Shown here: one piece after another, positions 22,156 to 26,068 of the stretch
How the letters are laid out: every line of letters begins with the position of its first letter
How positions within the stretch are numbered: the stretch's first letter is position 1
Assembly: GCF_018336915.1 (NCBI RefSeq)
Contig: NZ_CP064923.1
Location: forward strand, 4,050,001 to 4,082,000
Length of the DNA stretch: 32,000 bases
Origin: Acaryochloris marina S15
GTDB lineage: Bacteria > Cyanobacteriota > Cyanobacteriia > Thermosynechococcales > Thermosynechococcaceae
Direction: 5' to 3'
The notes under the pieces: generated by a model
What the model was told of the DNA's origin: nothing
Seen by the model: only the letters and a program-made list of their open reading frames with translations
The model's database searches: none
Translations under genes and position numbers: made by a program

Positions 22156-22632
22156 TTAGCAACTAGGAGGAGTGGCAATAGTTCCAGCACCTGGTGCTGG
22201 TTGTTCCTCAAGTGTAACGCTAGTAGTTGCTAAACTTCCAGAAATGATATCAGCATTAGTACATCCTGTAATAGCACTCAATAAAGGATCGGTTGGAGTA
22301 GCTCTAAACTCAGCTACCGTTGAATTTACAGTGCCAAATGAATAAGTATATTTTTCAGTCGTTAAAGGGATGCCTACACCAAGCGAACCCATATCGCTAG
22401 CAAAGGTTCGTTCTTCTAAGCGATAGGCTTGCTGGGCACGATTGACAGCACCAATTTGGCTTTTAGCAGCAGATTGACGGGCTTTATTTGCCTGATTGAG
22501 CATGGAGGGTAATGCTACACCTGCTAGAATAGCCATAATCACAATAACAACCAACAATTCAATCAACGTAAATCCTCTTTGAGTCTTCGACTTAGGAATT
22601 GTTGATAATACTTTCAAGTAATAATGAGACAT
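22156..22632 (-). CDS. type IV pilin-like protein (PilA paralog, pilA2-like)
   Basis: Prepilin cleavage/methylation motif ...KTQRG|FTLIELLVVIVIMAILAGVALPSML, with Glu at +5. Two C-terminal Cys residues (GCTNAD...PPSC). The ORF track extends to 22710, but the first 26 codons look non-pilin. ATG 22632 (MSHYYLKVLSTIPKSKTQRG) gives a plausible leader. Confidence 0.8.
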   Translation of the reverse strand: MSHYYLKVLSTIPKSKTQRGFTLIELLVVIVIMAILAGVALPSMLNQANKARQSAAKSQIGAVNRAQQAYRLEERTFASDMGSLGVGIPLTTEKYTYSFGTVNSTVAEFRATPTDPLLSAITGCTNADIISGSLATTSVTLEEQPAPGAGTIATPPSC

Positions 22633-23445
22633 GAGTCCGTACGCTGTAAACTGTTGGTTAGTGAATGGATAAAATACATCAGTATCTTTACTTTTGACAA
22701 AAAATCTCATGAGTTAACCAGGCTTAGACCTTCGCTTAACCACTCAATTATCAAGTCAATTTTGTGCATCTACAGATAACTAAAAGCCACAAAAAATTCA
22801 ATCAAATCATGATTAACGAACTCGTTTTAGCTTATCTATCTGTCCTTAAAAGAACCTTTAATCCATAAACAGGATTTGAAAATTTTTATATCTCTAATTT
22901 ATCCATATATTTTTAAATTCGCCTCAGCAAAAATACGGTTTAGGATAAATTAGATTCTGGAATACATAGAATTAGAATGAGCTCAGGATAAGGTAAAATT
23001 TCTATTATTACGTAGACTGAAACCTAAATACTTCCATCAATCTTAAAATAGGCTTAATCAGAATCGAAGCTAATTCATTTTCTCTCAAGAAATTTCGATC
23101 AAAAGAAGAGTTTTATTTTTTATATAAAACCTTTGACTAAACTAGGCAGCACTGAAATAAGAATCAATCAGAAGCATCCCTCTCACAATCTATTTCAGAT
23201 CATGAGAGTGCTTAATCAAGGTTTATAAATCATTTGACAATGGCATTGAAATTCAACCATCTTTCTAAGTGCAACTTCACCTAGATTTCCTATAGAAAAG
23301 GGTTTTTTATCTCAAGTAGAGATCAAATATAGTTCACATTAGAAAGACTGATTTACTCAGCATGGAGGTTGATCAGAAAGCTTGTCGAATAGAAAAGTCT
23401 ATTGATATTAATAGCCTCTTCAATATATGGCTATAATTCGTTGAG

Positions 23446-23582: not shown

Positions 23583-24035
23583 TTATGGGCAGGCAGGAGC
23601 TGCTGCACCTTCTTCAAGAGAAGAGTCCGTGGTACCAGTGGCAGCATCAACTGAAACACAACCACGGTAGAACTGTAGACCAGAACCAGTATCTATAGGA
23701 TTTGCTGAAGTTTCACCAGCAATAGCAGTAGAAGTAGCGATAGCAATTGTGTAATCTTCAGTGCTAGCGTCAGCGATTTGCAGGTCAGCGTAATCAGCAG
23801 CAAATGTAGGATTCTCTAAGCGATAGGCCTGCTGGGCACGGCTAACAGCACCCACTTGGCTTTGGGCAGCAGATTGTCTGGCTCTGTTTGCTTGGTTGAG
23901 CATGGAAGGCAGAGCTACAGCAGCCAAAATACCGATGATGATAACAACAACCAAAAGTTCAATTAGAGTGAAACCTTTGTTGCCTTTCTTGTTTACGAAG
24001 TGCTGGATGAGTTTGGCTTGTAGATTAGTCTTCAT
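23583..24035 (-). CDS. pilA: major type IV pilin (PilA1-like)
   Basis: Leader MKTNLQAKLIQHFVNKKGNKG|FTLIELLVVVIIIGILAAVALPSML (G|F cleavage site, Glu+5). C-terminal Cys pair (RGCVSVD...APACP). 150 aa. Own strong terminator. Confidence 0.88.
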   Translation of the reverse strand: MKTNLQAKLIQHFVNKKGNKGFTLIELLVVVIIIGILAAVALPSMLNQANRARQSAAQSQVGAVSRAQQAYRLENPTFAADYADLQIADASTEDYTIAIATSTAIAGETSANPIDTGSGLQFYRGCVSVDAATGTTDSSLEEGAAAPACP

Positions 24036-24292: not shown

Positions 24293-24370
24293 CACTCTCG
24301 CTTAAGAGCTGACAAATCAGCCTCTGTCATTATGGTGACTACCATAATGACAGAGGTATAAGCTTGAGTG
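24293..24370. repeat. 78-nt nested palindrome in the pilA/comM divergent intergenic region
   Basis: Inner perfect 16-bp inverted repeat CCTCTGTCATTATGGT (24321-24336) / ACCATAATGACAGAGG (24341-24356) with 4-nt loop GACT. It is flanked by outer imperfect arms CACTCTCGCTTAA (24293-24305) and ATAAGCTTGAGTG (24358-24370), which match at 10 of 13 positions. Confidence 0.8.
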
Positions 24371-24450: not shown

Positions 24451-24531
24451 ATGTTGGCTCGAGTATGGAGTTCATCCTTAATTGGGATTGAAGCGATCAA
24501 AGTAGGAGTGGAAGTAGATGTAAGCACTTAA
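24451..24531 (+). pseudogene. comM: detached 5' fragment (25 codons) of the comM/yifB gene, ending in a premature stop created by an insertion
   Basis: ATG 24451 is preceded by a GGGA-type RBS. It encodes MLARVWSSSLIGIEAIKVGVEVDVS, then T and TAA (24529-24531). This is the canonical YifB/ComM N-terminus (compare E. coli YifB ...VEVHISKGLPG...). It lies in a different frame from the main ORF. Confidence 0.75.
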
Positions 24532-24616
24532 GCAGAAGTAATTACAATCTATTTCCTTGCTAAGCCAGGGTTTTAGCAAAAATGTTGTGAAATTAATTAT
24601 GTCCTACTGCTTATCT
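24526..24616. mobile_element. ~91-nt MITE-like insertion with terminal inverted repeats interrupting comM/yifB (boundaries +/- 3 nt)
   Basis: Starts ACTTAAGCAGAAGTA and ends TCCTACTGCTTATCT. TAAGCAG (24529-24535) and CTGCTTA (24607-24613) form a perfect 7-bp terminal inverted repeat, 10 of 12 when extended. Internal hairpin TTGCTAA (24557-24563)-N9-TTAGCAA (24573-24579), followed by an A-run. Removing 91 nt (3n+1) restores DVS-GGLPG in one frame. Confidence 0.65.
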
Positions 24617-26068
24617 GGTGGACTACCAGGCATCGTGATTGTGGGTCTACCCGATACAGCAGTGCAAGAATCTAGGGAAAGGGTAAAAGCGGCATTGCGT
24701 AATTCTGGCTTAGCATTTCCCATACGCCGAATTGTGATTAACTTAACCCCTGCCGATTTACGTAAAGAAGGCCCAAGCTTCGATTTACCAATTAGCATCG
24801 GCATCCTAGCAGCCTCTGATCAGATTAATCCCCAGCTCTTAGGGGATTTCTTGTTTCTCGGGGAGGTTTCGCTAGACGGTGCCCTCAGACCGGTTACGGG
24901 TGTGTTACCCATAGCTGCTGCTGCCAAACAAATGGGATTTGTGGGTTTAGTTGTACCTTACAAAAATGCAAAAGAAGCGGCTGTTGTTAAGGGCTTATCC
25001 GTCTATGGCTTTGAGTCTTTATCCGAGGTGAGTAATTTTTTGAACGATCCTGATGCGGTTCAGCCCTTTCAGGAGGAAGACACAGCGAATGATGTGCAGC
25101 GTCTGCATCATCTTGATTTGAAGGATGTAAAAGGGCAGGCCCATGCCCGGCGAGCCTTGGAAATTGCAGCTGCAGGCGGGCATAACGTTATTTTCGTTGG
25201 ACCGCCAGGAAGTGGAAAAACAATGCTGGCTCGGAGATTACCAGGTATTCTTCCTCCTCTAGAATTCAACGAAGCTTTAGAGGTTACTAAGATTCATTCG
25301 GTGGCAGGCTTATTGAGAGATCAAGGTCAGTTACTTCGCCAACGGCCATTCCGATCTCCCCATCATTCCGCATCTGGACCAGCACTAGTGGGGGGAGGCA
25401 GTTTCCCCAAACCAGGGGAAATCTCTTTAGCCCATCGGGGAGTGCTATTTCTGGATGAATTAACGGAATTCAAAAGAGATGTATTGGAATTTTTACGTCA
25501 GCCCTTGGAGGATGGTTTTGTCAGCATTTCCAGAGCAAGGCAGTCGGTTACCTTCCCTGCTCAGTTCACCTTGGTAGCCAGTACGAATCCTTGTCCTTGT
25601 GGGTATTATGCAGATCCAATACAGGCCTGTACCTGCTCACCTCGTCAACGGGAAACCTATTGGGCTAAATTATCAGGGCCTTTAATGGATCGCATTGATT
25701 TACAAGTGGCTGTCAATCGTCTTAAACCTGAAGAAATCACCCGGCAAAGCAAGGGAGAAGAATCGGCTCCCATTCGAGAGCGGGTCAGAGCAGCTCGTCA
25801 CTTGGCGACTCATCGGTTTGAAGCTGAATCAAATTTACACAGTAATGCTCAGATGAATAGCCAACAGTTGCGCCAGTGGTGCCAGCTTAATGATGCAACA
25901 CGGCAATTACTAGAAACTGCGATTAGTCGACTAGGACTATCAGCAAGGGCAACCGATCGGATCCTCAAGGTGGGGCGAACTATTGCCGATTTAGCAAATT
26001 CTCCTAATTTAGAAGCAACTCATGTTGCCGAGGCTATTCAATATCGGACCATTGATCGACTTCAATAG
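24557..26068 (+). CDS. comM: YifB/ComM family Mg-chelatase-like AAA+ ATPase; main body, N-terminus disrupted
   Basis: GGLPGIVIVGLPDTAVQESRERVKAAL (Lon-protease-like N-domain). Walker A FVGPPGSGKTMLARRL. Walker B VLFLDEL. Cys cluster NPCPCGYYADPIQACTCS. C-terminal Mg-chelatase_C-like SARATDRILKVGRTIADL. The first 20 codons of the track ORF (TTG 24557, ATG 24599) lie inside the inserted element. Confidence 0.88.
   Translation: MLSQGFSKNVVKLIMSYCLSGGLPGIVIVGLPDTAVQESRERVKAALRNSGLAFPIRRIVINLTPADLRKEGPSFDLPISIGILAASDQINPQLLGDFLFLGEVSLDGALRPVTGVLPIAAAAKQMGFVGLVVPYKNAKEAAVVKGLSVYGFESLSEVSNFLNDPDAVQPFQEEDTANDVQRLHHLDLKDVKGQAHARRALEIAAAGGHNVIFVGPPGSGKTMLARRLPGILPPLEFNEALEVTKIHSVAGLLRDQGQLLRQRPFRSPHHSASGPALVGGGSFPKPGEISLAHRGVLFLDELTEFKRDVLEFLRQPLEDGFVSISRARQSVTFPAQFTLVASTNPCPCGYYADPIQACTCSPRQRETYWAKLSGPLMDRIDLQVAVNRLKPEEITRQSKGEESAPIRERVRAARHLATHRFEAESNLHSNAQMNSQQLRQWCQLNDATRQLLETAISRLGLSARATDRILKVGRTIADLANSPNLEATHVAEAIQYRTIDRLQ

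Follow-up and report, generated by a model that had tools for sequence, protein, structure and literature searches.

To explain why comM (yifB) of Acaryochloris marina S15 breaks off shortly after its start codon, and what form of ComM the locus might still supply, we analyzed a 32,000-nt stretch of the genome (hereafter the window; contig NZ_CP064923.1, positions 4,050,001 to 4,082,000). Reading from the ATG at 24451 on the forward strand, the first 24 codons (24451–24522, MLARVWSSSLIGIEAIKVGVEVDV) encode an N-terminus identical to that of uninterrupted alleles (P0001 and P0122), after which the frame runs into inserted DNA (Ser, Thr) and ends as MLARVWSSSLIGIEAIKVGVEVDVS-T-stop, the stop being the TAA at 24529–24531. 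Coding sequence resumes in another frame at GGT 24617 (GGLPGIVIVGLPD...), and the 3′ part of the gene (24614–26068, forward strand; codons 25–508 plus stop) is otherwise intact, with no frameshift or stop and with the Pfam domains ChlI, Mg_chelatase and Mg_chelatase_C. Deletion of 91 nt restores a 508-aa ComM that is 99% identical to the uninterrupted P0001 of a related assembly; together with the reading frames, this upholds the proposal of an initial annotation that a small element bearing terminal inverted repeats (TIRs) interrupts comM. The same annotation had pointed to two element-borne starts in frame with downstream comM, TTG 24557 and ATG 24599, and the former is indeed the start used in GenBank (QUY41284.1, 503 aa, “YifB family Mg chelatase-like AAA ATPase” of A. 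marina S15; 24557–26068, forward strand; P0124, identical to the window ORF), so that residues 1–19 of the deposited protein are encoded by the element. It had also placed pilin genes beside comM, and two type IV prepilin genes are present on the reverse strand: a 150-aa gene divergent from comM (23583–24035; PF07963 N_methyl and PF16734 Pilin_GH) and a 184-aa paralog (22156–22710; Pfam N_methyl/Pilin_GH).

The exact boundaries of the insert were set by sister strains, in which the initial annotation had expected an uninterrupted allele. Three related assemblies (L001, SRR17348476; L032, SRR12447967; L037, SRR17348483) lack any counterpart of the element and carry the empty site GA[T/C]G-TA-TCTGG (junction sequence GATGTATCTGG), compared to TA-[89 nt]-TA in the window. 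Because the empty alleles contain a single TA, the insert consists of 89 nt (24523–24611) plus one extra TA, the target site being duplicated at 24521–24522 on the left and 24612–24613 on the right. The bounds first given, 24526–24616, are thereby corrected, both they and the TIRs having been off by 3–8 nt. On these coordinates the AGC at 24523–24525 is element DNA that encodes Ser by chance, and the native Ser25 codon is TCT 24614–24616. Furthermore, comM is 100% identical to the empty-site relative L032 over the 356 nt that immediately follow the insertion point, and the repaired gene differs from that of L001 by 46 nucleotides in synonymous and 3 in non-synonymous codons, with no other lesion. 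Judged by this identity the insertion is very recent, and judged by the empty alleles it is polymorphic among close relatives.

The element has the anatomy of a non-autonomous transposon (an IS630-family MITE). Its TIRs are ~27 nt long and imperfect: when the two 32-nt ends are aligned with gaps, 24 positions agree. The left one lies at 24523–24549 (AGCACTTAAGCAGAAGTAATTACAATC) and the right one at 24584–24611 (GTTGTGAAATTAATTATGTCCTACTGCT). The inverted repeat TAAGCAGAAG/CTACTGCTTA by which the insert was initially delimited is present, but its left arm, TAAGCAG (24529–24535), lies inside the element, whose left terminus is in fact TA-AGCAC (24521–24527). Likewise, the 7-bp hairpin TTGCTAA-N9-TTAGCAA noted earlier exists at 24557–24579 (arms 24557–24563 and 24573–24579), but it occurs in the comM copy only, is not conserved in other copies of the family, and belongs to a region whose predicted RNA fold is no better than that of shuffled sequence (z = 0.13). 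The element has no coding capacity, with early stops in all three forward frames and only outward read-through ORFs, and a consensus scan found no sigma-70-like promoter site within it.

Searches for relatives showed that the comM insert belongs to a dispersed family of cyanobacterial repeats of 85–105 nt with ~27-nt TIRs and TA flanks. Scanning GTDB genomes with a two-block pattern returned 21 matches, 12 of them cyanobacterial, and the non-cyanobacterial matches scored at most 8 bits against a profile of the family. This profile was derived from an alignment of 13 copies (11 cyanobacterial scan matches, the window copy and a copy on a Nostoc plasmid), which are collinear end to end within unrelated flanks and have TA at both ends in 11 of 13 cases. 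The comM copy scores 65 bits (E 7e-19) against the profile, a value to be read with the comM copy itself being among the 13 training copies; independently of the profile, blastn with the window sequence recovered the related copy on the Nostoc plasmid (E 2e-3), and a 92-nt blastn query recovered eight further full-length copies on Nostocales plasmids. The family ranges over Nostocales, Chamaesiphon, Allocoleopsis, Plectonema, Stanieria and Acaryochloris, where its copies are mostly intergenic and lie in unrelated contexts. In the literature searched, which did not cover ISfinder, the family has no published name, and it may already be catalogued.

The ends of the element also identify its probable source. 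Full-length insertion sequences of 1086–1089 bp including TA flanks were found on plasmids of Anabaena cylindrica (pANACY.04), A. marina MBIC11017 (pREB5) and Acaryochloris “Moss Beach” (pMB01), all three flanked by TA and with ends of the form TAAG[T/C]A...AATTAATTACA. The ends of the comM element match those of the Moss Beach sequence at 27 of 32 and 25 of 32 positions and have the termini TAAGCA/TGCTTA in common with it, and ends of the broader family match those of the A. cylindrica and A. marina MBIC11017 sequences. The comM copy sits in the opposite orientation to the transposase gene of its closest full-length relative: its left TIR is the equivalent of that element's right end, where the transposase C-terminus is encoded, and its right TIR that of the left end. 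The pREB5 and pANACY.04 transposases contain HTH_28/29/32 and DDE_3 domains (Pfam; E 2e-40 and 1.6e-28) and are labeled “IS630 family transposase” in RefSeq. In the Moss Beach copy the transposase is divided between two ORFs, so that this copy may be defective. An internally deleted intermediate of 534 bp, whose TIRs are the same but enclose an ORF for the HTH alone, occurs in Stanieria pSTA7437.01. Since its ends match these ~1.09-kb IS630-family sequences with an HTH plus DDE_3 transposase, we interpret the comM insert as an IS630-derived MITE.

Collectively, these results strongly favor (probability about 0.9) a recent insertion of a non-coding IS630/Tc1-mariner-type MITE at a TA near the start of comM, with duplication of that TA. 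As the 89 nt encode nothing, the element was, by analogy with its family, presumably mobilized in trans: a DDE_3 transposase supplied by a related full-length insertion sequence would bind the ~27-nt TIRs, excise the element and integrate it at TA. With 91 bases added, the reading frame changes, and therefore translation from the native ATG stops after 26 codons; a protein restarted at TTG 24557 or ATG 24599 would lack residues 1–24 of the Lon-like hexamerization domain. Such an insertion is an ordinary kind of mutation and mechanistically nothing new. It resembles the IS630/Tc1-mariner class, including ISY100 (ISTcSa, 947 bp) of Synechocystis PCC 6803 (PMC6400869), in its TA duplication and imperfect TIRs of ~24–28 bp, and its ~1.09-kb relatives resemble ISY100 in domain architecture, their one transposase combining a paired HTH at the N-terminus with a DDE_3 catalytic domain. 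Unlike the 947-bp ISY100, these full-length relatives measure ~1086 bp, and the comM element is 89 nt and non-coding. It is similarly close to Nezha of Anabaena/Nostoc (partner ISNpu3), the Microcystis MaeMITEs and the MITEs of Anabaena sp. 90, which are short, TIR-bounded and non-autonomous, occur at empty and filled sites in close relatives, have TIRs in common with full-length insertion sequences, and inactivate genes by insertion, those of Anabaena sp. 90 creating pseudogenes (PMC3184786, PMC3542288, PMC10969869). The present family (85–105 nt) is, however, shorter than Nezha (130–170 nt).

We also considered whether further copies accompany the one in comM. An independent Logan assembly of SRR12447961 reproduces both insertion junctions at 100% identity, and two of its contigs end inside the element, 100% identical to the window: one breaks off at 24550, exactly 30 nt past the T that opens the left TA, and the other begins at 24586. 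We take these breaks to be the k=31 (k-1) signature of sequence present more than once in the sample, and on that reading the S15 genome would contain more than one copy of the MITE. Within the 32-kb window no other copy was detected with the full 91 nt, with three sub-patterns at up to 3 mismatches, or with the nhmmer family profile. No second copy of the comM-MITE subfamily was found on PLSDB plasmids or in JGI metagenomes; a metagenome scan with the two-block subfamily pattern gave no match, and one with the TIR pattern gave a single short copy in an unrelated context (L036). A protein search for an S15 transposase partner with the Moss Beach HTH domain returned no close relative: its matches were of 39–64% identity, the best at 52–64%, and none of them was an S15 record.

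Could the 91 nt instead be removed or bypassed after transcription, or simply be an error? A stop directly after the break, and coding sequence collinear on both sides of it, are what a small intron, a programmed bypass or frameshift, or an assembly artefact would also produce, yet we assign these explanations a negligible probability. An intron or riboregulator was rejected on the RNA fold noted above and on Rfam, which gave no match at the gathering threshold or at E ≤ 1. Translational bypassing fails because there is no matched in-frame pair of take-off and landing codons, the sole matching ACT “landing” codon (24606–24608) being out of frame with GGT 24617. The recurrence of the family with TA flanks, at unrelated and mostly intergenic sites in many cyanobacteria, is likewise at odds with an RNA-level function, and the reproduction of both junctions in the independent assembly disposes of the concern, raised with the initial annotation, that the insert is an artefact.

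A second suggestion, that the element acts as a reversible competence switch, toggling ComM and with it the recombination of transforming DNA through precise excision or through gene conversion among chromosome copies, draws on the polymorphism of the site among very close relatives and on the cut-and-paste nature of the family. Cyanobacteria are, moreover, often polyploid, and recombination can restore an inactivated comM in Acinetobacter (PMC11472951). A single recent insertion explains the polymorphism equally well, however, and the SRR12447961 assembly runs unbranched through the left TA junction, so that no abundant empty allele appears to coexist with the filled one (the assembler removes low-frequency variants). 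In addition, the 2-bp TA duplication offers a poor substrate for slippage-type or other homology-driven precise excision, and we know of no case in which IS630/Tc1-mariner excision restores its target exactly. Finally, nothing ties the family to comM, given that its copies elsewhere are mostly intergenic. We therefore regard a switch as highly improbable.

If the MITE insertion is accepted, its consequence for ComM depends on the severed N-terminus. The repaired protein matches PF13541, PF01078 and PF13335 above their cut-offs (Lon-like, Mg_chelatase and Mg_chelatase_C) and aligns with Legionella pneumophila ComM (8RXD) over residues 6–502 at 424 bits. Among 24 diverse cyanobacterial ComM proteins, most positions of codons 1–24 show no or almost no variation (invariant: M1, L2, A3, R4, W6, S7, G12, I13, V18–E21, D23 and V24), contrary to the possibility raised at the outset that homologs naturally lack this segment. 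In L. pneumophila the Lon-like domain is the hexamer scaffold, within which E22 pairs with R117 across subunits (PMC11612176), and E21 of A. marina ComM is the counterpart of this E22 at the Lon-ring subunit interface. An AlphaFold2 model derived from the 24 aligned sequences was of low quality (mean pLDDT 52.9; below 50 for residues 1–52) and was disregarded.

The initial annotation had offered a truncated but functional ComM as one outcome, and the GenBank record implies the same: an N-terminally remodeled protein that keeps helicase function and measures 503 aa if translation starts at TTG 24557, or 489 aa if it starts at ATG 24599. The two in-frame starts within the element and the fully intact downstream ORF are compatible with this, as is the retention, in products of 489–503 aa, of 117 of 121 PF13541 ChlI positions (5–121) and of all ATPase and C-terminal domains, the last of which harbors the DprA-binding surface (PMC12012524). 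We nevertheless judge it unlikely, as the lost residues 1–24 are near-invariant at most positions in cyanobacteria and form part of the Lon-like hexamerization module, including the E22 counterpart, and as the consensus scan revealed no promoter-like site in the element. The intactness of the ORF, for its part, is fully explained by recency, in view of the complete identity to the empty-site relative over 356 nt. With the frame shifted and the restart products deprived of Lon-like residues 1–24, S15 comM is most likely a fresh loss-of-function allele, as predicted from its sequence. QUY41284.1 would accordingly be better annotated as a MITE-disrupted comM than as a genuine YifB variant, the insertion having been missed in the public annotation, and one would predict that S15 integrates heterologous DNA less efficiently by the ComM-dependent route, which is relevant to genetics in this strain. 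The family itself, documented here as a recently active ~90-nt IS630-type MITE with full-length partners and a deletion intermediate, should aid repeat annotation and strain typing.

Loss of comM to mobile DNA has a precedent in Acinetobacter baumannii, where AbaR/Tn7-like islands, IS elements and defence islands insert into the gene, as also happens in Pasteurellaceae, and less heterologous transforming DNA is integrated as a result (PMC11472951). The gene and the expected phenotype are the same in S15. In Acinetobacter the main agents, Tn7-like transposons, possess a target selector dedicated to comM (PMC10293859), whereas the MITE in S15 targets TA, shows no sign of being specific for comM, and lies at codon 24 instead of in the ATPase domain. 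That selection has made comM a repeated target for mobile elements in the A. marina clade, with the S15 MITE as one instance, is a tentative idea that we consider doubtful; if it were true, mobile elements or IS-rich hosts would gain by disabling ComM-dependent curing through transformation, and Acaryochloris would be the cyanobacterial counterpart of the comM conflict in Acinetobacter. Taken with two other independent disruptions of the gene in the clade, the S15 allele gives a small, testable hint of recurring comM loss in IS-rich Acaryochloris.

One of these disruptions is a repeat-type insertion in comM after nt 426 in SRR12447967, whose 30-nt foreign end gave nothing relevant in a plasmid blastn search. 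In other Acaryochloris samples, comM is interrupted at nt 724/725 by a Tn554-like element carrying two tyrosine recombinases, which, alongside the Acinetobacter cases, bears out the earlier remark that comM is hit by mobile elements elsewhere.

In A. marina S15, comM (yifB), a recombination-helicase gene, has recently been interrupted by an IS630-derived MITE; the insertion is genuine and polymorphic, and the gene is mis-annotated as intact. Read from the window, the native frame runs from ATG 24451 to GAT GTA AGC ACT TAA (MLARVWSSSLIGIEAIKVGVEVDVS-T-stop), an ORF now 26 codons long; the ComM coding sequence picks up in another frame at GGT 24617. Joining the two parts restores a 508-aa protein that matches thousands of cyanobacterial YifB/ComM sequences, the closest being an uninterrupted ComM from a related assembly (P0001, 99% identical), which bears out the split, with its stop and frame change, noted in the initial annotation. 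The sister-strain alignment revealed an uninterrupted site in three related Logan assemblies: L001 (SRR17348476, 98.7% identical downstream), L032 (SRR12447967, 99.3% upstream and 100% over 356 nt downstream) and L037 (SRR17348483, 99.1% identical). Comparison of their empty sites (...GTAGA[T/C]G-TA-TCTGGTGG...) with the filled S15 site (TA-AGCACTTAAGCAG...CCTACTGCT-TA) places an 89-nt element at 24523–24611, flanked by a duplicated TA (24521–24522 and 24612–24613). The native Ser25 codon is TCT at 24614–24616; the AGC previously assigned to it is the element's first three bases. The repeat arm once taken as the left end lies inside the element and nearly repeats its actual terminus. The outer ends read TAAGCA.../...TGCTTA, and the terminal inverted repeats (TIRs) are imperfect and ~27 nt long (24 identical positions when the two 32-nt ends are aligned with gaps).

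To place the element, we searched for related copies. Plasmid blastn gave one weak match, intergenic on a Nostoc plasmid, which has two blocks in common with the window copy. Scanning GTDB representative genomes with the two-block pattern TAATTACA-N28-50-TTGTGNAATTAATTA returned 21 matches, 12 of them cyanobacterial (Nostoc, Plectonema, Chamaesiphon x4, Allocoleopsis x3, Brunnivagina, a marine MAG and others). Eleven cyanobacterial scan copies, the window copy and the Nostoc plasmid copy (n = 13) match end to end within unrelated flanks, have the ends TAAG[T/C]A...ACAGAATTAATTACA and TGTGTAATTAATTATGTC.AACT[A/G]CTTA, and are bordered by TA at both sides in 11/13 cases. The family profile scores 46–80 bits on its own training copies, among them the window copy (65 bits), and at most 8 bits on the non-cyanobacterial scan matches. 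A second plasmid search yielded eight further full-length copies on Nostocales plasmids and several matches to one TIR only, one of which is the end of a 534-bp IS630-family element on Stanieria cyanosphaera pSTA7437.01 (L026, 1993–2526) that keeps both TIRs. Its ORF fuses an HTH domain to the transposase's last residues, and because this HTH-only ORF stands alone between the same TIRs, the element is an internally deleted IS, plausibly a step on the way from the ~1.09-kb IS to the ~90-nt MITEs.

Using the Stanieria ORF, tblastn recovered plasmid-borne genes for a full-length "IS630 family transposase" in A. cylindrica, Nostoc, Calothrix, A. marina MBIC11017 and Acaryochloris "Moss Beach". The three full-length copies examined each measure 1086–1089 bp including TA flanks and are alike in TIR architecture; the A. 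cylindrica and MBIC11017 transposases contain HTH_28/29/32 and DDE_3 domains. Ends best matching the S15 element belong to the copy on "Moss Beach" pMB01 (L031, 1492–2492), which has the same TAAGCA/TGCTTA termini and matches the two S15 ends at 27/32 and 25/32 positions, the S15 element being inverted with respect to the transposase direction. The "Moss Beach" transposase lies in two ORFs (157 and 159 aa) within an annotated CDS of a length not divisible by three; the copy may be frameshifted or defective, or its translation may rely on programmed slippage. This correspondence of TIRs and termini to full-length IS630 elements identifies the S15 element as a MITE of IS630/Tc1-mariner type. Mechanistically, its best characterised relative in cyanobacteria is ISY100, which targets TA and has imperfect inverted repeats of 24 bp (PMC6400869).

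Other explanations of the interrupted frame were weighed against this assignment. An assembly artefact is ruled out: two Logan contigs of SRR12447961, which match the window at 100% identity over 6.9 and 11.0 kb, include both junctions. Both contigs terminate within the element, the left one ending at 24550, exactly 30 nt past the T of the left TA, and the right one starting at 24586. At the Logan k of 31, such breaks are expected of a TA-initial sequence that has two or more loci in the sample, which we take as indirect evidence for at least one further copy in that genome. The insert has the inverted repeat TAAGCAGAAG/CTACTGCTTA and an internal 7-bp hairpin (24557–24579). An intron, bypass or recoding was rejected, as Rfam gave no family for the insert at the gathering threshold or at E <= 1, the region folded no better than shuffled sequence, the comM break offered no in-frame take-off/landing codon pair, and the family occupies unrelated, mostly intergenic contexts. 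A competence switch operating by excision, as initially proposed, found nothing in its support: no branch at TA was seen in the filled-site assembly (SRR12447961; at assembly level, as rare excision would show in reads only), the duplication is 2 bp only, and no association of the family with comM was seen elsewhere.

The MITE insertion bears directly on ComM function. Repaired comM has no other lesion, differs from L001 at 46 nucleotides in synonymous codons versus 3 in non-synonymous codons, and equals the empty-site L032 allele over the comparable 356 nt, so purifying selection acted on the gene up to the insertion, which is very recent. A protein restarted at TTG 24557 or ATG 24599 would have residues 1–24 replaced; in 24 ComM proteins representing diverse cyanobacterial orders, most positions of this stretch vary little or not at all. 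The alignment of repaired ComM with L. pneumophila ComM (8RXD, 424 bits) starts at residue 6. In the latter protein, cryo-EM identified the N-terminal Lon-like domain as the hexamer scaffold and E22 and S26 as inter-subunit contacts (PMC11612176); these correspond to E21, lost in a restarted S15 protein, and S25, which is kept. Given this conservation, the scaffold role of the domain and the loss of E21, loss of function is the most likely consequence of the insertion (probability about 0.75). Our own structure prediction of ComM was too poor in quality to serve as evidence. The S15 case belongs to a known phenomenon, MITE inactivation of cyanobacterial genes being well documented (PMC3542288, PMC10969869).

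The longest ORF across the remainder of comM starts at TTG 24557 (24557–26068, 503 aa) and is identical to GenBank QUY41284.1 (A. marina S15, YifB family ATPase), whose first 19 residues are MITE-encoded. This is the single 503-aa entry in the 90% cluster of P0001; ComM of A. marina MBIC11017, CCMEE 5410, NIES-2412 and "Moss Beach" in that cluster are all 508 aa. Public annotation takes the interrupted gene for an intact YifB whose N-terminus comes from the element, and the entry needs a flag marking the gene as disrupted.

Further comM disruptions were observed in Acaryochloris. In SRR29694076 (L034, 903–4819) and SRR12447954 (L035, 3900–4067), comM is split at nt 724/725 (..GILPPLE/FNEALE..), with 3–4 contigs for each half (P0127, P0126). 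The first genes of this element encode two tyrosine recombinases (371 and 624 aa) and a DUF6262 protein, an order similar to that of Tn554. The element has short inverted ends (ATCTCTAGC/GCTAGAGAT); its termini read AAATCTCTAGC... and ...GCTAGAGATAATCC, for which a 2-bp TT overlap is possible. SRR12447967 comM (L032 1–30, just past window 24967), has an empty MITE site, but past nt 426 (codon 142) the contig runs on for exactly 30 nt of foreign sequence (CAGCATTTTGGACATCTCAATTTACTCACT) and then ends; this 30-mer is absent from PLSDB plasmids and from all loci retrieved, and the break shows the k-1 pattern again, here from a different repeated element inserted in comM. Taken with the S15 MITE and the nt 724/725 element, comM has thus been struck independently two or three times in the Acaryochloris clade, whose genomes are IS-rich, echoing Acinetobacter, where comM is often inactivated by mobile elements (PMC11472951).

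Upstream of comM, on the opposite strand, lie two prepilin genes that share a 178-nt stretch of 77% identity (22399–22576 and 23799–23976), covering the N-terminal methylation and transmembrane region, and are therefore tandem paralogs. Between strains, the prepilin side is 88–93% identical versus about 99% on the comM side. The divergent prepilin/comM intergenic region holds a perfect 16-bp stem with a 4-nt loop at 24321–24356 (CCTCTGTCATTATGGT-AGTC-ACCATAATGACAGAGG), a candidate terminator-like structure on the minus strand according to a terminator scan.
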